20,000 nt of DNA from an uncultured virus (IMG/VR IMGVR_UViG_3300006802_000088) (IMGVR_UViG_3300006802_000088); one strand, 5' to 3'; positions 2,318 to 20,000 are shown, counted from the first letter of the stretch. Program-made: numbers and translations. The notes: generated by a model not told the origin, from the letters alone.

Positions 2318-3676
2318 ATGTCGCAAGACAATAAGAGAGTCGAAGAACTGCAATCAGCTCTTCGCACAAAAATGGCAGAAAACAAGGCAATTGCTGATTC
2401 TTTCAAAATCGAAGAAGGCACAGTAGTCGTCTCTGCAGAGCAGAAATCAGCGTTCGACAAGAACATGGTTGACATCAAAGAAATCAAGAGTCTCATCTCT
2501 GGTTTGTCGGCAATGGAAGAAGTTGACCAGTGGGCATCAGAGCCACAAAGTTCAGTAGCAGGCGCATATGCTTCTGCAGCTGCAGGTGTTCAACAACTCA
2601 CAAGCCGCGAAATCAAGACAATCGGCGAAATGTTCCTTGACTCACCAGAGTTCAAGTCACTCGCCAATGGTCGCAACGGCTACAACATGTCATCACCATG
2701 GCAGGTAGCTACATCGTTGACTCAACACAACTACGGAGTCAAAGATGTCTTCAGTGCAATGCCAACAGTTGGTGCAGTTGCTCGTGGTTCGGGTCTCGGC
2801 GACTTCGGCACCATTCAGCGTGACCCAATGGTGACACCACCGATGCGCACAAAGCGTGTTCGTGACCTGTTCCCAGTTCGCACAACAACAGCATCGGTTA
2901 TCGAGTACTTCCGTCAAGTTGGATTTACCTCGGTTTCAGGCGCACCAACCAACAACGCTGCATCAGTTGCAGAACGAGCAGCCGGCAACGTTTTTGCCGC
3001 TAAGCCACAATCTGGTTTCTCGTTTGTTGGTGAGCAAGTAGCAGTGAAGACATTGGCTCACTGGGAGGCTGCACACCGCAACGTCCTTGCTGATGAACCA
3101 CAGCTGCGTTCAATCATTGACAATGAGTTGATGTACGGTCTTCGTCTTCTTGAAGACCAACAAATCCTCAACGGTGACGGTGCAGGAGAAAACCTTAAGG
3201 GTATTCTTCAGACATCAGGCATCCAGACTTACCTCTGGTCGTCGGGTGCTTCGGCTCCAGTCAAAGACACACGAGCAGACGCAATTCGTCGTGCGGCAAC
3301 ACTCGCTTACTTGGCCTACTACGAGCCAAGCGGCGTTGTTGTTCACCCATCGGATTGGGAAAACCTCGAATTGGCAAAGGACACACAAGGTCAGTACCTG
3401 ATTGCTCTTTCAGTAGCAATGGGTGGCGAACCAAAGGTGTGGAGAATGCCAGTTGTTGACACACCAGCAATCGCACAGGGCACCTGCTTGACAGGCGCCT
3501 TCGGCACGGGAGCTCAGCTCTACGACCGTGAGCAGGCGAACATTCGCATCAGCGAACAGCATTCGGATTTCTTCATCCGCAACGCAATTGTTATCTTGGC
3601 AGAGCAAAGACTCGCTCTTGCTGTCAAGCGACCAGAAGCGTTCGTGAAGGTAACATTCGACAACGCTCCAGCCTGA
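2318..3676 (+). CDS. HK97-fold major capsid protein with N-terminal delta (scaffold) domain
   Basis: 452 aa. Coiled-coil N-terminus, then 'RVRDLFPVRTT', 'LRSIIDNELMYGLRLLEDQQILNGDGAGENLKGIL', 'VVHPSDWENLELAKDTQGQY' and C-terminal 'FIRNAIVILAEQRLALAVKRPEAFVKVTF'. Strong SD, strongly biased codon usage and a downstream terminator. Confidence 0.96.
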   Translation: MSQDNKRVEELQSALRTKMAENKAIADSFKIEEGTVVVSAEQKSAFDKNMVDIKEIKSLISGLSAMEEVDQWASEPQSSVAGAYASAAAGVQQLTSREIKTIGEMFLDSPEFKSLANGRNGYNMSSPWQVATSLTQHNYGVKDVFSAMPTVGAVARGSGLGDFGTIQRDPMVTPPMRTKRVRDLFPVRTTTASVIEYFRQVGFTSVSGAPTNNAASVAERAAGNVFAAKPQSGFSFVGEQVAVKTLAHWEAAHRNVLADEPQLRSIIDNELMYGLRLLEDQQILNGDGAGENLKGILQTSGIQTYLWSSGASAPVKDTRADAIRRAATLAYLAYYEPSGVVVHPSDWENLELAKDTQGQYLIALSVAMGGEPKVWRMPVVDTPAIAQGTCLTGAFGTGAQLYDREQANIRISEQHSDFFIRNAIVILAEQRLALAVKRPEAFVKVTFDNAPA

Positions 3677-8622: not shown

Positions 8623-8696
8623 GGCGCCTCATGAGAGAATCGAACTCCCCTAAAATGCTTAGAAGGCATTTACTTTATCCACTAAGTTAATGAGGC
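8622..8696 (-). tRNA. tRNA-Arg, anticodon UCU, CCA encoded
   Basis: Reverse complement folds as acceptor GCCTCAT/ATGAGGC, D-arm ACTT-AGTGGATA-AAGT, anticodon arm AATGC-CT[TCT]AA-GCATT, T-arm GGGAG-TTCGATT-CTCTC, then G-CCA. Confidence 0.95.
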
Positions 8697-9229
8697 TAGA
8701 TTCCTTTGTTTTTACGATAATACTTCCTTTGATATTCGCGCTGATACTTTAGATAGGCTTCTTTTGTTTCTGGGTTCTGCCGTTTTTCTAGAGCTTTATC
8801 ACGCTGACACTTCTTGCAAACGCGGTCAATCCTGCCATTTTTTCTCTTTCGTTCATACACGCCAAATTCTTCAAATAGGTGACCCTTGCGACAATGTGTG
8901 CGCTTTCTTGAAGATGAGCCTTGCCTGTCTTTCTTAAACATGTCTTTCATATTTCCAGAATTTGTGCCAAGAAATAAGTGTTTTGGGTTGACGCAAGGCG
9001 GATTGTCGCAATGATGGCAAACAAGCATTCCCTTGGGAACTTCGCCTATATGGAAAAGATAACTTGAGACATGCGCTCCGATTGGAGGTTTTTTTGTATA
9101 GTAGGCAAAAGAGCCGTATTTTTTGCTGGTCTTTCCACCTTTCCAAATCCAACAGTCTGGATATTTATCGCTGCCCGATTTATCGACTTTCTGAAAAAAT
9201 CTTTCAATGAGTGGCATATGCTTAGCCAT
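8696..9229 (-). CDS. HNH endonuclease with one C-terminal HC-x2-GH...C-x2-C module
   Basis: 'ERFFQKVDK..CWIWKG..YG.F...AH...VCHHCDNPPCVNPKHLFLGTNSGNMKD'. ATG 9229 chosen because it has an AGGAG SD and aligns with the paralog's N-terminus. Confidence 0.9.
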   Translation of the reverse strand: MAKHMPLIERFFQKVDKSGSDKYPDCWIWKGGKTSKKYGSFAYYTKKPPIGAHVSSYLFHIGEVPKGMLVCHHCDNPPCVNPKHLFLGTNSGNMKDMFKKDRQGSSSRKRTHCRKGHLFEEFGVYERKRKNGRIDRVCKKCQRDKALEKRQNPETKEAYLKYQREYQRKYYRKNKGI

Positions 9230-9851
9230 TTCTCCTCTTTCTTTGCCTAATCCGCATACACTCTGCGCACGTCCTATATTTTCGTCCACTTTTTTTCACG
9301 TACCACTTTTCTCCATAAATGCTAAAGTCATGGCCCTTTCTGCAGTGATTTAACTTTTGTGGTCGTTCTGCTTTTTTCTTTTGCCTACGTTCTCTGCGCT
9401 CTTGACTCCACCTCATGTGGCAAGCCCTACAATCCCGTGTTCTAAAACCAGTACGTTTACTGATTTTATAGATTGTATTTTCTTCATCATAAGGATGACC
9501 GTGTTTACAGTGTGTCTTCCTGCTCTCTTTGTGATTCCCATACATAACCGAATAACGCTGATTATGAGAACGGCTTCCAACCTCAAGGTGGTCAGGACGA
9601 ACACATGGAGGATTGTTACAGAGATGACAAACTTCTAACCCACCGGGGACAGGACCATTTAGTTTTTCCCAAATATATTTATGTGTCTGGACTTTTTTGT
9701 TTATCCCATCGCGTTTATATGAAAACATGCCATATTTTTTTACTGTATGCGCAGTCCATTCCCAACAATTCGGATAATTTGGATTTCGCCCGGATTTATC
9801 AACTTTCTCCCAAAAACGCTCTTCCTCTGGGATTGGTGTTCTTCCTGCCAT
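9222..9851 (-). CDS. HNH endonuclease with two C-terminal HC-x2-GH...C-x2-C modules
   Basis: 'ERFWEKVDK..CWEWT..YG.F...VCHLCNNPPCVRPDHLEVGSRSHN', then 'THCKHGH...RDCRAC' and 'NHCRKGH...RTCAEC'. Confidence 0.9.
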   Translation of the reverse strand: MAGRTPIPEEERFWEKVDKSGRNPNYPNCWEWTAHTVKKYGMFSYKRDGINKKVQTHKYIWEKLNGPVPGGLEVCHLCNNPPCVRPDHLEVGSRSHNQRYSVMYGNHKESRKTHCKHGHPYDEENTIYKISKRTGFRTRDCRACHMRWSQERRERRQKKKAERPQKLNHCRKGHDFSIYGEKWYVKKSGRKYRTCAECMRIRQRKRRNG

Positions 9852-9855
9852 ACCC

Positions 9856-11781
9856 CTACTTTATCGGGCATGCTCCTGTGGCGCAATTGTCAAGGTCTAA
9901 ATCCCCCATGAATGCAACTTCTTGTAATGGGGTCGAAAAGTCAATCTTGGCAAGCATCTTGTCATACTCATCTTTAGACACTTCTTCATACGGAGGTAAA
10001 GAAAAGTTATGGTCAACATGCAACAAGAACGAAACTGACTTAACGCTTTTGTCATAATTCTTTGAGAGCCACTCCTGGATTTCCCCAAGCTCTTCTTTGC
10101 GGTAATAGACGGTCACGGAGACAGCATTATCTGCCCACTCAGTCTGCATCTTTTTCACCCATTCAAGCTGTTCAACTGCAGTCATTGCTGAAGCAAGAAT
10201 TGAGCCCTCTGGTGACATGCATGGGAAGTCCACTACGTAGCGCGTGTGGTCTTCTCTGCCATCAATACCGATGTCCCATTGAACTTTGTATCCACGCTTA
10301 CGACACGCATCGACAAGCGGGTCAGAAGAGCCAAAACGAACTCGCCTAACGTAGAAGGGGGCAAATGCAGGGTGAATTCCTGGTGTGACGCCAGGGAGTA
10401 GTGAAAGCGTTCCAGAGGGCTGCACCGTAGTCAAACGAACCGATTCTGGCCACCCACGTTCAGCAGAGTACTGCTTATCAAATTCCTGCAAGTATTCGTA
10501 CGCAGGAGACAGCCATGAAATTTGCTCATCTGAACACTGAAGTATTCCGGTCACAGATTGTCCAAGTCTTGCGTTCTTGCTTACGATATTTGTTGTTTTC
10601 TCATATGGGTACGCCATACGAGTGATTTGTTTTTGTGTCTTGTAAAGCAAGCGAGAGATTTCTTTAAATTGCTCAAGCGACTCAACGTTTGACAAAAATA
10701 TAGTTGCAAGGTTGCATGACTCTCCGTCGGCAAGGGCAATCTCAGCACAAGGATTAAACCCCTCAATTGAGTTGTCAATTTTTACTTCACCAAGGCGACC
10801 ATATTTACGAGCAAGACGGCGGTTTAGCAGTCCATAAGGCTCTCCAGTGCCATCGTAACCCTTCCATAGCTCACTCATTATTTCGTCATAATGGTCTGCG
10901 TAAATTGAGTTGTTCGAATTTGCTCTCCAGGCAGGAATATTGCCTGATGCCCAGTTTTTGGCGCGGATAAACAACACATCGTCTGGGTCCCCCATGGCGA
11001 TTTGCGCTGAACGTCGCGAAGAGCCAGAAACGACAATACGTCCAATGATGTTGCAGATGTCTAATACGTCAATGGAACGAAGCTTTTTGCCTTCACGGTT
11101 TTGCAATACCTTACAGATATCTGAAATTCCATCAATGAGCGCGCCAGGACCGGATGCGGTACCACCAAAAGTTTTTAGAGGAGCTCCATATTCGCGAATC
11201 AAAATAGTTGAATATGAAAATGATTTGCCAGTATCAAAATATGATTTCAGAACAGCATGGAGAAGACGTTTCCAGCCTTGACGTGAATCAGGAACAATAA
11301 TATCTGCGTCATTGCTGCGCTCTTGAGTAATTACAACCCCTGATTTAACTTTTGGTAAGTCATGAATCTTTGAACGCTCTACAGAAAAACCGACACCACC
11401 ACCGAGCATTAAATATTCAAACAAAAGCTCAAAATCTTCAATTTTTTCAATATTGGTGAAATAGCAATTATTAAGCGATGTGGCATTAAATTTCTGAACA
11501 AGAGGTGTCCCCAGTTGCCATAAAGAGCGTCCAGAAAAAGAACAACGAAGATTGAAACAATGGTCAAATAGTTTTTCCGCTTCTTCCTTGGTGTAATCGA
11601 CGCCTATTTCATGCGCACCATTAATAACTCTTTGAAGGGTCTCAACCCATGTTTCGTTATTACCATTACTTTTTTTGCGACTATATGTTCTAAGGAAAAC
11701 AATTTCTCCCATCCCGTTAAAACCCCATGGTGGCAGTTTTTGGGAATACGAATCTACAAATTCTTGGTCAAGTAATGTCAT
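9856..11781 (-). CDS. nrdJ: class II (adenosylcobalamin-dependent) ribonucleotide reductase, monomeric RTPR type
   Basis: 'RTYSR', 'LNNC', 'GGGVGF', 'RRSAQI', active-site 'NPCAEI...ESCNL', 'TTVQPSGT' and C-terminal redox Cys pair 'CATGACPIK'. No small-subunit gene adjacent. Confidence 0.93.
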   Translation of the reverse strand: MTLLDQEFVDSYSQKLPPWGFNGMGEIVFLRTYSRKKSNGNNETWVETLQRVINGAHEIGVDYTKEEAEKLFDHCFNLRCSFSGRSLWQLGTPLVQKFNATSLNNCYFTNIEKIEDFELLFEYLMLGGGVGFSVERSKIHDLPKVKSGVVITQERSNDADIIVPDSRQGWKRLLHAVLKSYFDTGKSFSYSTILIREYGAPLKTFGGTASGPGALIDGISDICKVLQNREGKKLRSIDVLDICNIIGRIVVSGSSRRSAQIAMGDPDDVLFIRAKNWASGNIPAWRANSNNSIYADHYDEIMSELWKGYDGTGEPYGLLNRRLARKYGRLGEVKIDNSIEGFNPCAEIALADGESCNLATIFLSNVESLEQFKEISRLLYKTQKQITRMAYPYEKTTNIVSKNARLGQSVTGILQCSDEQISWLSPAYEYLQEFDKQYSAERGWPESVRLTTVQPSGTLSLLPGVTPGIHPAFAPFYVRRVRFGSSDPLVDACRKRGYKVQWDIGIDGREDHTRYVVDFPCMSPEGSILASAMTAVEQLEWVKKMQTEWADNAVSVTVYYRKEELGEIQEWLSKNYDKSVKSVSFLLHVDHNFSLPPYEEVSKDEYDKMLAKIDFSTPLQEVAFMGDLDLDNCATGACPIK

Positions 11782-12204: not shown

Positions 12205-12843
12205 TTAATTAAATTCCTGTACATAGAATCCGTTATGTTTAATTAGCATTCTTAGCTCATCATAAGATTCTTTAGGTAAATCATCAATAACTTTTTCTGC
12301 TAAAACTGATTGCAACATTCTCGGATAAAGTCCGTTTCTTAGCTGAGCATCTGGCCCGTTTGGGTAAACCAAAATCTCGGACCAATCAATACTTTTATTT
12401 AAGCCATAAGAATATGGAATTGCCACCATGCTCACGTAGGATGGGGCTCTACCATCTTCTTCAACACCAGCATGACTAACAGTTATGCATTCTTTTACCC
12501 CTATATTGGGGTCAAGAAAAGCCATAGAAAGCTCCATATCCTTAGTTCTGGTTTGGTTAGCCGAGCAATAGCCCTCTGCGACCATGGCTATTGAATTCAC
12601 CCCCCAATACCGTCTGAGGACCGAACATAACTCAGCCGCTATATGCAGCCTTTTGTCGGTAGAAAGGCTCATAAGCTCCCTTTTCATTTGGCACACAATA
12701 ACCAGGCGGTCATCAACCCAGCCAAAAAAGTTCATACTCAAGTCCTCCCCTATTCCATCCTCCTTAACAGTATTTGACTTGGCTAATTGAGCAGCCGTCA
12801 TGACTAGGGCCATTTTGCTCAGGGAGTTATCATAGTCATCCAC
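12205..12843 (-). CDS. hypothetical protein
   Basis: 212 aa ORF with GTG start and TAATCT 6 nt upstream. Confidence 0.75.
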   Translation of the reverse strand: MDDYDNSLSKMALVMTAAQLAKSNTVKEDGIGEDLSMNFFGWVDDRLVIVCQMKRELMSLSTDKRLHIAAELCSVLRRYWGVNSIAMVAEGYCSANQTRTKDMELSMAFLDPNIGVKECITVSHAGVEEDGRAPSYVSMVAIPYSYGLNKSIDWSEILVYPNGPDAQLRNGLYPRMLQSVLAEKVIDDLPKESYDELRMLIKHNGFYVQEFN

Positions 12844-13177: not shown

Positions 13178-13591
13178 ATGACCACGGAGCATCGTCGCGC
13201 CCCTAGACGTAAGATAGTCGAGGTTAGTCGCGAGGGTGCTTGGGGTAAAGTTAAATATAAACATTTACTTGAGTGTGGACACACCGAAATAAGACCAAGA
13301 GCATCATCAACGCCAAGCCTTGCTTGTGCGTGGTGTTTGAGAGTAGACGTAAGGCAAAAAGAAATTAACGCTCTCTCTATTATCAATAGAGGCCCATACG
13401 TCGACGTTTCACCATTAATGGCGTCCGATGAAATCACTTTGAGTAAAACACGAGCTTTACTCTCTTCTAAATTTGGAGTTCCTCTCGACGCTGTGGATAT
13501 TATTTCCAGCGACGTAAACGGAAATTTAGAAATAAATTATGCAATAATTTTTCTTTCTTCAGGAGATGTGGCTAGGCTGATGAAACCATAA
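13178..13591 (+). CDS. hypothetical protein with LECGH...CAWC zinc-binding motif
   Basis: 137 aa with C-x-H...C-x2-C pattern. Confidence 0.7.
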   Translation: MTTEHRRAPRRKIVEVSREGAWGKVKYKHLLECGHTEIRPRASSTPSLACAWCLRVDVRQKEINALSIINRGPYVDVSPLMASDEITLSKTRALLSSKFGVPLDAVDIISSDVNGNLEINYAIIFLSSGDVARLMKP

Positions 13592-13613: not shown

Positions 13614-14009
13614 ATGGATAATAATAAAGAGCCTTTTAATAATCCACCGAAGAACGGTAAATGCGTTGGACATCCAACAGAGTTATGGTTCCCCCACCAC
13701 GTCAGGGGAGCAAAAGTTCAAGAGTTCCGTGAAAGAAAAGAAAAGACACGAAGAGCAATTGAGATTTGCAAAACCTGCGATGTCAGTGAAGAATGTTTAC
13801 AATATTCATTAAGACACGAACCATGGGGTATATGGGGCGGCAAAACTGAACTACAACGTGCAGCAATACGTGTTCAAACCAATGTTCGACTTACTCGGGA
13901 TGGAAAAATATTTATACCTGGATTAGGTAATAGAAATGCCAATGGAGAAGCATTAATTCGTCAGCCCAAGAGTCTAAAGAGGCCAACCGCATTGTCTGAG
14001 GTTCAATAA
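13614..14009 (+). CDS. whiB: WhiB-family Fe-S transcription factor
   Basis: Four Cys (C...WFP...ICKTCDVSEECL) and the 'GIWGG' turn. SD GGGAG. Confidence 0.93.
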   Translation: MDNNKEPFNNPPKNGKCVGHPTELWFPHHVRGAKVQEFRERKEKTRRAIEICKTCDVSEECLQYSLRHEPWGIWGGKTELQRAAIRVQTNVRLTRDGKIFIPGLGNRNANGEALIRQPKSLKRPTALSEVQ

Positions 14010-16742: not shown

Positions 16743-19700
16743 ATGTTCGAACCAATTATTATAAAGCTTGACTACTCGCCACGAGACGAAAGACATAGCA
16801 AGCAGATAAAAAGCGTGGCATCTAGACTCGGTAAAAGAATTGGTAGAGGCCTGGTGGGCAGGCCAAATATTGGTAGAAACAGAAGAACGATTGGTTCTGG
16901 AAGAATTGACATACCCACTGGTGGTGTGCGCGGATACAAGAGACCAACAGGAAATCGTCGCGACATTGACAGAGATGGCTGGGCAGACGAAGGCACAACT
17001 AACCCTGTATGGGTCGGGCTGAGCGGTGGGCGAGATAGACCAATTATTGAAACCCAAAGAGCTAGACCAAAAATAAATTTAAATAATCAAAAAATAAATG
17101 AAAGAAAAAAAATTCGTCAAAAAATTAAATATGGCGAAAGTTCTTTGGATGGCAAATTAATTAGTAAAAAAAACGGCCCCAAATGGTTGGATGGATTAAG
17201 CAATGAGCAGATTTCAAACATCCTCGTCCCCGACTCGTATCAGACTTATTCTCAAATGCTGGCCGATGGATTCGGTGTCGACAAAGAGACTATAGAAAAA
17301 TATCTTAAATCTAGATGGGGGGTTGGAAAACCTTGGTTGGAAATTGATTACTCGGAAAGTTCAACTAAGCAATTAAAACAAGCACTCAAAACTGCTCTTG
17401 ACGAATCGCCTATTTTTTCTTGGGCCGTAAGAAATTACGGCTCACCAACATATACGGTAATGACCAGAAAAAGTGCAGAAACATACAACAATCGAGATGC
17501 AGTAAAGCCATTATATGATGCACTCAAAAAAATGTATCCAGATGCACCTGGAGAGCCACAATTTGCCGCAAGCAATCATCTTGATTTTGAAATGGTGACT
17601 TTTAATCCAATCAATGTGATTGATAAAAAATCATGGCAAACAAATGAACCAATTTCAAGCAGCTTTCAAACGTCTAAATTACCATCTAGCTCCGACACCG
17701 TAATAGATAGAAGCATCTCTGGAACTATTTTGCATGAATGGGCTCATTGGTATCACTCCGAGATGCTTTTGGCAAATATTGAAAGTTCTGAAAATAAAAA
17801 ACGGTCGCCTAAATCTTTGATTAATCCTCAAGATTCTGATTTTACCGAAAAAATCAAAATTGCACTTGAGTACAATTCCGATAATGGAAACATGAATCTT
17901 CATTCAACCAAAAAATCACTGGAAGACTCACCAAACGAGCCAAGGACGATTACGTCTTATGGGCACGTGAGCAGAAAAGAAATGTTTGCAGAAGGGATGC
18001 TTGCTTACATGCACCCCAATGAGCAACTGAAACTAAAAGCAATAAATAAAAAATTAAGACAAGATATAGAAACAATCTTGGCCGGAGATAAAGGCGTTGA
18101 TGCGTGGAAAGACAGTAAGGCGAACATAAGAAGAGAAAAAAATATTTTAAGTTCGGGTAGGAAAAATCGTAAGTTAACAAAATTGTCATCAGGTTCAAAA
18201 GCTGAGAAACCCGAAAGACCAACGTACCCAAGACACCCTAGCTATGGTCCATTCCTTGATGACGCTGAAGACGTGTTTGCAGATGTAAAAAACTGGAAAG
18301 AGTTCAAAGAAGTTTACGATAATTTAGAAATAAATTTCTTTGACTACGAAACTACTGGATTGGTTTCTGACGAATTTCGACAATCGTCCGGTAATGGCGC
18401 TCCAGTGCAGTTTGGTGTAACAAAGACCAAAGGCGGCAAGGAGATTGGTCGACTAAATATTTTTATGAACCCGGGAGAAGAGCTTGGGGATTGGTCGAGA
18501 AAAAATCTTAAAAACAAAGACGGAGAACCGCTTACCGACGAATGGCTGTCATCTCAAACATCGATAGCTGATGCGCATAGAAAATTAATTGAATTTGTGG
18601 GTCCTGATGCAATTTTTGGAGTTCAAAATGCAGTATTTGATAAAACGGTACTAGAAGATGCACTGACATCATCAGGCATCGAGTGGAGACCAAAGGGCTG
18701 GGTAGATACGAAAGTTGTATCCGATTTAGTAATTCCTAAATGGACAAAAGAAAATCAAGACGCACCTTGGACTACTGACGGGAAAACTGGTGAAAAAATT
18801 CCGTCAAGTAGCCTAAAGGCTTTGACCGAATATCTCAACATAGACCTCGGGAAAAAACACCATACAGCAGACGCTGATGCGGCAGCCACATCAGTGTTGA
18901 TGTCAAAAATTATTGATAAAGCAATTGAAAAAAATTGGAGCAGCGATATTTTTGATAAAAATTGGCGCGACCAAAAAATCAAAGACAAATTAGAAAACTA
19001 TCAACAAAAAATTATTGATTTTGAACAAGAAAAAAATAATTGGATTTCCGAAACGTCTCCTAAAAAATCCACAGTTCCAAAAGAAGTGGAGAAAAAAGAA
19101 TTTGGTTTTGGCAGACTATCTAGTGGTACCACTTCGTACAGGGGCCGCCACGAATCTCCTGATGCGTCAAGTGGGGCACCCCTACACAACCTGGCTAATG
19201 GCGCCATATATCCAGAAGATATCTATGGTCCAAATGGAGCGAACCTTTATGGGGGCGCATTCCCGGATTTAGCTCAAAAAGCTGTTGCTATTTTTAGAAA
19301 ACTCCGCAATAAACCAGACTCTGAATTGACCATATATAGGGCGGTTCCAAGGGGCAAAAACATTAAAGAAGGCGACTGGGTAACGATTCTCCCCGAATAC
19401 GCAAAAATACATGGAGATAGTTGGTTAAAAGATAACTATGAAATAGTGACCAAGAAAGTAAAAGCAAAAGAATTATTTAATGAAGGTAATTCACTTCTTG
19501 AATTTGGTTATCACTCAAAATTGTCTTCTGGCAAATACGATGGTGCCCCCACATATAAAGGAAAAGTCTGGAAAGATAGAAAAAATGAATTAGATGGCCC
19601 TGTGTGGTCATTTCGGTCTCAGGCCAAACAGTACCCAGACGATGGTCCGCCGGGAATTTCATATTTTAAAGGCGTAGTTGATGATTCAACATGGGTTGAT

Positions 19701-20000
19701 TGCCTGCTTTATAGAGATGATTCAGGCAAAGTTATTGGCATCTTAAATCATTATCCATTTGCTCTTGTAGACCCAGATGACCCACGAATTGTAGAAAGAC
19801 GCGGGAATATCAACATCTTTATTGACCCCAAACATCAAGGTAAAGGTATAGCAACAAAACTTGTAGATGAAGCAGTTTCTCGATATAACGTCGACCTACG
19901 CAGGCAGCGATATAGCGAAGAGGGCGCAAATTTTATAAACAGGTATATACGTAAGCTTCCCGAAAATAGGGATAAATCAAAACTTTCATCTGGAAGCCAA
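16743..20000 (+). CDS. large polyvalent protein/polyprotein, 3'-truncated: basic leader - zincin metallopeptidase - DEDDh 3'-5' exonuclease - ART-like domain - GNAT acetyltransferase
   Basis: Hand translation from ATG 16743 shows no stop up to 20000 (1086 codons). HEWAH 17733-17747 with SY...EMFAE 17955-17993. DYETTG 18342-18359, QNAVFD 18624-18641, HTADAD 18861-18878. IYRAVP...GDWVT 19332-19385. FIDPKHQGKGIA 19818-19853. Confidence 0.9.
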   Translation, partial: MFEPIIIKLDYSPRDERHSKQIKSVASRLGKRIGRGLVGRPNIGRNRRTIGSGRIDIPTGGVRGYKRPTGNRRDIDRDGWADEGTTNPVWVGLSGGRDRPIIETQRARPKINLNNQKINERKKIRQKIKYGESSLDGKLISKKNGPKWLDGLSNEQISNILVPDSYQTYSQMLADGFGVDKETIEKYLKSRWGVGKPWLEIDYSESSTKQLKQALKTALDESPIFSWAVRNYGSPTYTVMTRKSAETYNNRDAVKPLYDALKKMYPDAPGEPQFAASNHLDFEMVTFNPINVIDKKSWQTNEPISSSFQTSKLPSSSDTVIDRSISGTILHEWAHWYHSEMLLANIESSENKKRSPKSLINPQDSDFTEKIKIALEYNSDNGNMNLHSTKKSLEDSPNEPRTITSYGHVSRKEMFAEGMLAYMHPNEQLKLKAINKKLRQDIETILAGDKGVDAWKDSKANIRREKNILSSGRKNRKLTKLSSGSKAEKPERPTYPRHPSYGPFLDDAEDVFADVKNWKEFKEVYDNLEINFFDYETTGLVSDEFRQSSGNGAPVQFGVTKTKGGKEIGRLNIFMNPGEELGDWSRKNLKNKDGEPLTDEWLSSQTSIADAHRKLIEFVGPDAIFGVQNAVFDKTVLEDALTSSGIEWRPKGWVDTKVVSDLVIPKWTKENQDAPWTTDGKTGEKIPSSSLKALTEYLNIDLGKKHHTADADAAATSVLMSKIIDKAIEKNWSSDIFDKNWRDQKIKDKLENYQQKIIDFEQEKNNWISETSPKKSTVPKEVEKKEFGFGRLSSGTTSYRGRHESPDASSGAPLHNLANGAIYPEDIYGPNGANLYGGAFPDLAQKAVAIFRKLRNKPDSELTIYRAVPRGKNIKEGDWVTILPEYAKIHGDSWLKDNYEIVTKKVKAKELFNEGNSLLEFGYHSKLSSGKYDGAPTYKGKVWKDRKNELDGPVWSFRSQAKQYPDDGPPGISYFKGVVDDSTWVDCLLYRDDSGKVIGILNHYPFALVDPDDPRIVERRGNINIFIDPKHQGKGIATKLVDEAVSRYNVDLRRQRYSEEGANFINRYIRKLPENRDKSKLSSGSQ
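18144..19994 (+). repeat. dispersed peptide repeat [K/R/I]-L-S-S-G, five copies at domain boundaries
   Basis: ILSSG 18144-18158, KLSSG 18180-18194, RLSSG 19113-19127, KLSSG 19518-19532, KLSSG 19980-19994. Confidence 0.9.

Follow-up and report, generated by a model that had tools for sequence, protein, structure and literature searches.

The open reading frame (ORF) that begins at position 16743 of a 20,000-nucleotide stretch of DNA from an uncultured virus (IMG/VR IMGVR_UViG_3300006802_000088; the whole stretch is called the window here) encodes a giant phage protein in which one four-residue peptide, LSSG, recurs between protein-sized units. The peptide is concentrated in giant ORFs, lies at the junctions of their modules and is maintained by selection on the peptide, and related LSSG-bearing proteins are fused to a prohead protease and encoded in line with portal and capsid genes. 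Our preferred reading, which we hold to be somewhat probable, is that LSSG is a proteolytic processing site of effector polyproteins packaged in the phage head; the cleavage, packaging and ejection of these proteins are what we infer from the comparisons below.

Translation of the window ORF, a class I polyvalent ORF (16743..20000, + strand, as are all its parts), gives the first 1086 amino acids (aa) of a protein that runs past the window's end. Close relatives lie on six IMG/VR contigs, and the full-length ones measure 2403 aa (L005), 2082 aa (L001 and L002) and at least 1994 aa (L003). The protein opens with a Gly/Arg/Pro-rich leader module of 92 aa (16743..17018, N-terminal cluster 1), a variant site, LSGG (17019..17030), and module 0, a zincin peptidase (17031..18146) with HEWAH at 17733-17747 and EMFAE at 17979-17993. 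LSSG sites 1 (18147..18158) and 2 (18183..18194) then form a double site around a basic spacer of 8 aa, RKNRKLTK (18159..18182); short basic spacers are also found in relatives. There follow a DEDDh (RNase_T-type) exonuclease module of 307 aa (18195..19115), site 3 (19116..19127), a 131-aa module of an unnamed family (19128..19520), site 4 (19521..19532), a GNAT acetyltransferase module of 150 aa (19533..19982) and site 5 (19983..19994). The five LSSG and the variant had been noticed in a first-pass annotation of the DNA, and both translation and a six-frame scan find them where it had placed them, with the difference that its coordinates take in the preceding residue. Its view of GLSGG after the leader as a form of the motif also holds, for L003 and most other relatives have GLSSG there. 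The pieces between sites are 372, 307, 131 and 150 aa long, or 376, 311, 135 and 154 aa with the motif included, which are the sizes it had proposed for released products.

Two of the domain labels in that annotation survive comparison with Pfam. At 22.5 bits for RNase_T the exonuclease (PF00929) of the window ORF falls just short of the cut-off of 24, and relatives score as much as 45 bits; the GNAT module (PF00583 and PF13508) reaches 23.3 bits for Acetyltransf_1 against a cut-off of 20.7. Another label, "ART-like" for 19128-19520, has to be dropped: no ART family matches in Pfam at E<=0.1 or at E<=1. Residues 1-128 of the 131 share 44% identity with residues 1456-1584 of the polyvalent protein P0053, a region between its ART-PolyVal and LPD23 domains. 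Since this match falls outside the ART-PolyVal domain, the module is, as judged by homology, an unnamed polyvalent-protein domain and not an ART by Pfam; homologues of it occur in mycobacteriophages. None of the signature domains of polyvalent proteins (MPTase-PolyVal, ArdC-N, LPD, ART-PolyVal) is detected by Pfam in the window's 1086 aa, and the leader and five further modules have no significant Pfam match. The domains of the window ORF and its full-length relatives are RNase_T, GNAT, helix-turn-helix (HTH) and zincin, and those of sister and related giant ORFs are ArdC-N, MPTase-PolyVal, UvrD, Sigma70_r4 and ADPrib_exo_Tox.

The abundance of LSSG in these proteins is far from what composition would give. 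The window ORF holds 5 copies against 0.042 expected from its amino-acid composition over 1086 aa, and none of 20,000 shuffles reached 5, the maximum being 2. Across all six frames of the 20-kilobase (kb) window the motif occurs only twice more, at 12541, within a 63-aa open stretch, and at 13553. This last copy (13553-13564) lies near the C-terminus of a 137-aa ORF of unknown function (13178-13591, + strand), has no basic flank and probably arose by chance. Beyond the window the motif continues along the remainder of the ORF, with 10, 12 and 11 copies in its full-length relatives, but it is almost absent from the other proteins of a genome. The complete 170,425-bp genome G003 has 21 LSSG in 209 ORFs, 20 of them in three giant ORFs (3694, 2699 and 2583 aa) and a single one in the remaining 38,659 aa; the motif is missing from another five ORFs, 918-1648 aa in length. 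That lone copy sits in a 517-aa ORF (24737-26290, + strand) with a HELMH zincin motif. In the complete 160-kb genome G004, 16 of 20 [LF]SSG fall in two giant ORFs. A search of 5.8 billion proteins returned 57 related giant proteins of 1174-3568 aa, 54 of which carry LSSG in 2-17 copies each. The three without it are P0048, P0049 and P0053, and two of these are classical polyvalent proteins.

Selection acts on the peptide, as the first-pass annotation had supposed from the differing codons. The five LSSG 12-mers of the window ORF are all different at the nucleotide level, and across relatives the motif columns are conserved while their codons differ. In protein pairs that are less than 70% identical, identity at the four motif columns is 73-77% as against 22-44% in the 20 columns on each side. 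Among 4441 partners aligned to an LSSG, 2838 are LSSG themselves, and the commonest variants are LASG (87), LGSG (72), LSGG (35), ISSG (29), FSSG and LSSA (15 each) and LPSG (13). This spectrum defines the core as [L/I/F]-x-S-G, with Gly the most constrained position. Over 372 distinct contexts the consensus is [K/R/S]-L-S-S-G-[K/A/R], and the residue after the Gly is never Pro, Phe, Cys or His. The flanks form "dialects" that vary by lineage (KLSSG, RLSSG, GLSSG, SLSSG[A]) while the core stays constant, and some lineages mix FSSG with LSSG.

The sites delimit units that behave as exchangeable proteins. When 61 giant proteins were cut at LSSG into 511 segments of at least 25 aa, 456 of these matched another LSSG-bounded segment end to end (>=80% coverage on both sides) and fell into 113 clusters. 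The zincin module is found next to 10 different modules on its left and 11 on its right, the exonuclease (cluster 2) next to 10 on each side. Of 7289 BLAST high-scoring segment pairs of less than 90% identity, 54% start and 42% end no more than 10 aa from a site, compared with 8% for random positions. Unit sizes are those of whole proteins: 310-316 aa for ArdC-N plus MPTase-PolyVal, 648-652 aa for a UvrD helicase, 150 aa for GNAT. Homologues with other domain orders keep LSSG exactly at their module junctions. The earlier statement that the peptide marks every domain boundary thus needs narrowing: LSSG does bound protein-sized units, but not every domain, as ArdC-N and MPTase lie together in one unit of 310-316 aa. 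Of 924 inter-site stretches 91 are shorter than 20 aa, and these short spacers are mostly basic. In two AlphaFold2 models the sites lie in low-confidence coil. All six sites of the window ORF have a predicted local distance difference test score (pLDDT) below 50 in the 1086-aa model, whose mean is 52 and whose only confident part is the exonuclease core, residues 491-771.

The head region of relatives provides a candidate enzyme. In G003 TerL stands first, on the opposite strand, and next to it the portal gene. There follow a giant ORF of 3694 aa, a gene for an acidic protein of 558 aa, a second giant ORF of 2699 aa, six further ORFs and the gene for the major capsid protein, which is 75% identical to that of the window; the homologue of the window ORF lies 14 kb further on. 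The same order is found in G001, the nearest record to the window, and in G002. The post-portal giant ORF, which we call class II, begins with an HK97-type S78 prohead protease (PF04586, 38-48 bits against a cut-off of 21 in G001, G003 and G004); the window itself contains no such protease gene. Its His64 and Ser128 are invariant in 11 aligned sequences, and we take them, by analogy with S78 motifs, to be the likely catalytic residues. The class II layout is an N-terminal S78, about 350 aa, a copy of the leader, a Pro-rich stretch and then modules separated by KLSSG; MPTase-PolyVal and ArdC-N reach strong scores in these proteins. Over 80 IMG/VR loci, kept from at least 557 matching stretches, the S78-fused ORFs total 168,241 aa and contain 469 LSSG. 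Every one that reaches 1000 aa has the motif, which is still present where the protease-fused proteins have diverged to 41% identity. S78 is N-terminal in all class II proteins, and no other peptidase combines fusion to LSSG strings in every one of the 80 loci with the canonical protease position. The second giant ORF has a MuF-like head-morphogenesis stretch (phrog_7625) and 1-2 sites, and S78, MPTase-PolyVal and the HEIAH zincin of this MuF-type giant are all present in each of the three genomes examined. Neighbouring ORFs mostly have no PHROGs match. Between the two head-region giant ORFs lies a hyper-acidic protein of 558-586 aa with long D/E/M runs (L009 8138-9844 of G002, with homologues in G001 and G003); this protein, in a scaffold-like position, has neither a family match nor an LSSG.

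The leader is shared by both classes. It is N-terminal in 37 of 37 class I cases, with a length of 92-131 aa, and its hidden Markov model (HMM) matches class II proteins at about residues 534-613. It is present in 65 of the 80 class II ORFs, 56 of which have no site upstream of it. The leader of the window ORF is predicted with pLDDT below 50. It contains a DxDxDGxxDEG stretch at 16962-16994 (D-I-D-R-D-G-W-A-D-E-G), in which D74, D78 and G79 are invariant in 25 sequences and which resembles a calcium-binding DxDxDG loop.

These features can be assembled into a mechanism. The window ORF would be one of three giant head-associated polyproteins of a freshwater actinophage of about 130-170 kb. Each polyprotein would be a string of complete effector or take-over proteins (an M34-like zincin, a DEDDh exonuclease, GNAT, HTH), to which the sister strings would add ArdC, a UvrD helicase, a sigma-like protein and an ART. 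Their joints would be disordered, mostly basic linkers that carry [L/F]-x-S-G, usually as [K/R/S]-LSSG-[K/A/R]. The shared leader module would take the polyprotein into the procapsid, much as head cargo of T4 carries capsid-targeting sequences. There the S78 prohead protease, first unit of the post-portal sister polyprotein, would cut at each LSSG, and the single proteins freed in this way would be ejected along with the DNA. A four-residue code in the linker would let cassettes be inserted, deleted and swapped without disturbing the processing, and if the reading holds, this would account for the extreme mosaicism. S78 is our leading candidate for the enzyme, if a doubtful one. A prohead protease and the HEWAH peptidase of module 0 were the two enzymes put forward in the first-pass annotation; we favour the former because it is fused N-terminally to the sister LSSG polyprotein after the portal and because the HEWAH module is absent from G004. 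Assemblin-fold proteases recognise sites of the form hydrophobic-x-small|small, a shape that L-x-S|G with its variable second position would match. The wider picture is offered tentatively: a large clade of double-stranded DNA (dsDNA) tailed phages would use an RNA-virus-like polyprotein strategy for the arsenal that they inject, with up to three giant products loaded by a shared leader and cut by S78 at a universal [L/F]xSG code into a dozen or more independent enzymes.

A possible echo of the site is seen in the HK97-fold major capsid protein of the window (2318..3676, + strand; phrog_10). Its residues 93-97, which follow a variable stretch rich in Ala, read Q-L-S/T-S-R (QLTSR at 2594-2608) and lie near the point at which the delta domain of HK97 is cut off, where such cleavage would be expected. 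Over 121 sequences L94 is conserved in 120, S/T95 in 121 and S96 in 116; five further genomes likewise have L-S/T-S. Judged by its capsid protein (46% identity), the nearest cultured relative is Gordonia phage Gray, which is without LSSG polyproteins and has no L-S/T-S at that place. We regard this capsid peptide as suggestive only of a cleavage-site echo. No covariation with the linker motif could be seen, as there is no variation: each of the 121 capsids and five genomes reads L-S/T-S-R/H/S, and every linker [LF]SSG.

Several observations weigh against our reading of LSSG as a processing site of head-packaged polyproteins. First, the capsid has R/H where the linker Gly is most constrained, so that its "LSS" may have arisen by chance, and in a capsid family of such high general conservation those columns say little. 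Second, 599 of the 1086 residues of the window model also have pLDDT below 50, and the position of sites in low-confidence regions is therefore weak evidence. Third, 9 of the 65 class II ORFs that carry the leader have a site upstream of it. Fourth, a strictly LSSG-specific prohead protease would not degrade the acidic scaffold-like protein, which lacks the motif, and each genome examined has two or more zincins able to be the enzyme. Finally, the window ORF stands 14 kb from the head genes, beside primase and HTH genes. This locus, together with a leaderless module 0 peptidase in G007, fits an intracellular, non-packaged role equally well.

The most serious competitor is that LSSG is cut by an encoded zincin (the HEWAH peptidase of module 0, the MPTase-PolyVal of the ArdC module or the HEIAH zincin of the MuF-type giant), in cis or in trans, in the capsid or after injection, and we consider this unlikely. 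One candidate is module 0, found more widely than any other class I module (cluster 0, 38 segments), which in every relative read is followed directly by an LSSG-type site and a basic stretch. H235, E236, H239, E317, A320 and E321 are invariant in 7 sequences of 27-92% identity with the window's, giving HExxH and a downstream E-x-x-A-E whose Glu is in the place of a third zinc ligand. The module has no Pfam match. Its AlphaFold2 model (pLDDT 72, predicted template modelling score 0.78) has disordered tails, residues 1-48 and 353-372, that adjoin the sites. Structurally the model is nearest to the catalytic domain of lethal factor (LF 572-775; Z 9.2, root-mean-square deviation 4.1 Å, 176 aligned residues by VIA-align), followed by PPEP-1 (Zmp1) of Clostridioides difficile (Z 6.9, 174 aligned), and the next unrelated chains have Z<=6.0. 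Its Atlas feature neighbours are PPEP/ATLF clusters. The predicted fold thus appears nearest to anthrax lethal factor and PPEP-1 (M34). Sequence links to M34 are non-significant (E 0.044-0.87, with a PDB profile E of 0.044 to LF), and Foldseek gives E>=0.03 with TM 0.24-0.32. Compared with M34 zincins, module 0 shares HExxH and the downstream E-x-x-A-E, and differs in an extra N-terminal helical part and in having no significant sequence match. Its best non-significant PDB profile match (E 0.037; profile positions 156-210) is to Hdf of phage P1, a head-associated Dar protein.

Lethal factor and PPEP-1 are strict, sequence-specific endopeptidases that act on extended peptides, and lethal factor prefers upstream basic residues and a hydrophobic P1', a preference that would fit [K/R]|LSSG. 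The other two zincins occur in all three genomes examined, and autoprocessing by MPTase was proposed in the main text of Iyer 2017 (PMC5512222). Distribution, however, speaks against module 0. A protein search of the complete genome G004 gives no match at E<=0.001, and an HMM of 38 sequences gives none at E<=10, compared with 3e-165 in a positive control. As this genome keeps 16 [LF]SSG sites, module 0 cannot be the general LSSG enzyme. In G007 (L120 2384-3457) module 0 forms a gene of its own, 357 aa long and with neither leader nor sites, directly after primase and HTH genes. This is the same locus as that of the window's giant ORF, and the giant gene may have grown around the module 0 peptidase. 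Nothing separates MPTase or the HEIAH zincin from S78 as the enzyme.

LSSG might instead be bound and not cut, serving to dock a full-length protein to the capsid interior, scaffold, portal or a chaperone, or as a place of Ser modification. The comparisons are compatible with this, for they show a conserved recognition peptide in disordered linkers and not cleavage, and the main text of PMC5512222 describes transfer without processing for the virion RNA polymerase of N4 and for certain polyvalent proteins of plasmids. We judge it quite improbable nonetheless. The units between sites are complete proteins that elsewhere are separate genes, and a protease is fused in cis to LSSG strings. Double sites 2-20 aa apart with junk-like basic spacers are also easier to understand as excision. 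In Gray an RNA ligase, a VIP2-like ART and an HTH protein of 971 aa each have their own gene in the interval from portal to protease, and its head proteins are without LSSG.

We give very little credence to the possibility that LSSG is functionless, an inherited linker or recombination scar travelling with the cassettes. Some long linkers are indeed recent DNA duplicates: in L005 (P0002) two double-site linker copies of about 100 nucleotides, at residues ~1271-1303 and ~1630-1662, differ at 3 positions, share the same 17-aa spacer between two LSSG and flank a 338-aa HTH-repeat module in the manner of direct repeats, so recent duplication or recombination also occurs. L001 has a truncated module remnant between two sites. 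Against this, the site 12-mers hardly ever repeat within a gene: 9 of 10, 12 of 12 and 14 of 14 differ from one another (35 of 36 over the three genes), with all Leu and Ser codon families used. The motif also stands out as an island of identity in pairs with diverged flanks, keeps its core where the flanks change dialect, and is retained by protease-fused proteins as little as 41% identical. Cutting by a protease of the actinobacterial host, after injection or during synthesis, has a similarly slim chance: phage lineages whose hosts probably belong to one group, as their WhiB genes suggest, all have the motif unchanged, but the phage encodes four or more peptidases next to the sites and we know of no host protease of LSSG specificity. 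Known short signals were rejected on sequence grounds as well, namely sortase LPxTG, the lipobox, ubiquitin-like LRGG/LxGG, 2A-type ribosome skipping and pyruvoyl-type or LexA-type self-cleavage. The length and residues of LSSG are wrong for them, its codons change from site to site, and the sites fall outside folded structure.

Other genes of the window bear on the nature of the phage. A WhiB-like regulator (13614-14009, + strand; phrog_472, E 5e-15) marks it as an actinophage, with hosts probably among the freshwater Actinobacteriota; the GC content of the window is 41.5%. Two overlapping HNH endonuclease ORFs (8696-9289 and 9222-9851, both - strand; phrog_826, E 5e-35 and 7e-45) adjoin a ribonucleotide reductase gene (9856-11781; phrog_367) and are possibly homing endonucleases. 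Upstream of the capsid gene an ORF of 230 aa (1473-2165, + strand) with no PHROG match has two copies of a G-C-x-G ... W-M-P-C stretch. Against GenBank phages the window ORF has no megablast match, and tblastn gives only single-module matches of less than 60% identity; the LSSG system is therefore carried by no cultured phage in the GenBank phage collection.

The presence of explicit junctions matters for several reasons. Polyvalent proteins are common in phages and conjugative elements, but their processing has so far been a proposal without sites, and LSSG is an explicit, invariant four-residue junction. It recurs hundreds of times across at least 557 matching IMG/VR stretches with a candidate enzyme fused in cis, which makes the processing hypothesis testable. 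If the sites are cut, gene-based annotation undercounts functional proteins about tenfold per giant ORF in abundant freshwater phages. Whole anti-defence or take-over enzymes would then be swappable without regulatory cost, and effector genes would be plug-and-play cassettes through which the arsenal is reshuffled between near-identical phages. More broadly, such a string would supply a natural and modular "cargo string" with which capsids could be filled with foreign proteins. Literature searches found no published description of the LSSG motif or its junctions, and the main text of the COBRA actinophage paper contains 0 occurrences of "polyvalent", "giant protein" or "large protein".

It is useful to compare the LSSG proteins with three known systems. 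The closest are the polyvalent proteins, defined by Iyer, Burroughs, Anand, de Souza and Aravind in 2017 (PMC5512222), whose main text proposes processing by MPTase/zincin or assemblin-like peptidases. Both are giant multi-effector chains that share ArdC-N, MPTase-PolyVal, ART, MuF, helicases and LPD and are encoded near virion genes; here the capsid gene is in the window, and portal, TerL, S78 and the MuF-like domain lie beside the sister giant ORFs in relatives. The main text of that paper names no cleavage or linker motif, and the word "linker" occurs in it 0 times. The assemblin-like peptidases that it describes are always C-terminal, whereas S78 is N-terminal in the LSSG proteins. The classical polyvalent relatives P0049 and P0053 have 0 LSSG, and the junction peptide and protein-sized cassettes are specific to the LSSG lineage.

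A second comparison is with the prohead proteases of SPN3US and phiKZ, whose cuts in head and ejection proteins fall, according to the text of PMC10052503, at a short motif and for the most part remove propeptides. With T4, phiKZ and SPN3US the LSSG system has in common a head protease, many internal or ejected proteins and a short consensus, and N-terminal propeptides there target cargo into the prohead. It differs in the motif, which in those phages is of the A/S-x-E type, and in the protease family. In addition, 13 of the 14 mapped sites given there for SPN3US remove N-terminal propeptides of single-gene proteins, whereas up to about 17 LSSG sites would split one product into many enzymes, with the protease fused to its presumed substrate.

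The third comparison is with the polyproteins of RNA viruses, in which one ORF gives many mature proteins by means of a short conserved junction peptide and a cis-encoded protease. One ORF, a short junction peptide and a protease encoded in cis are likewise found here, where the mature products would follow if the sites are cut. The differences lie in the virus and in the cargo: this is a dsDNA tailed phage, its units are accessory effectors and not a replication core, and their order and content vary among close relatives.

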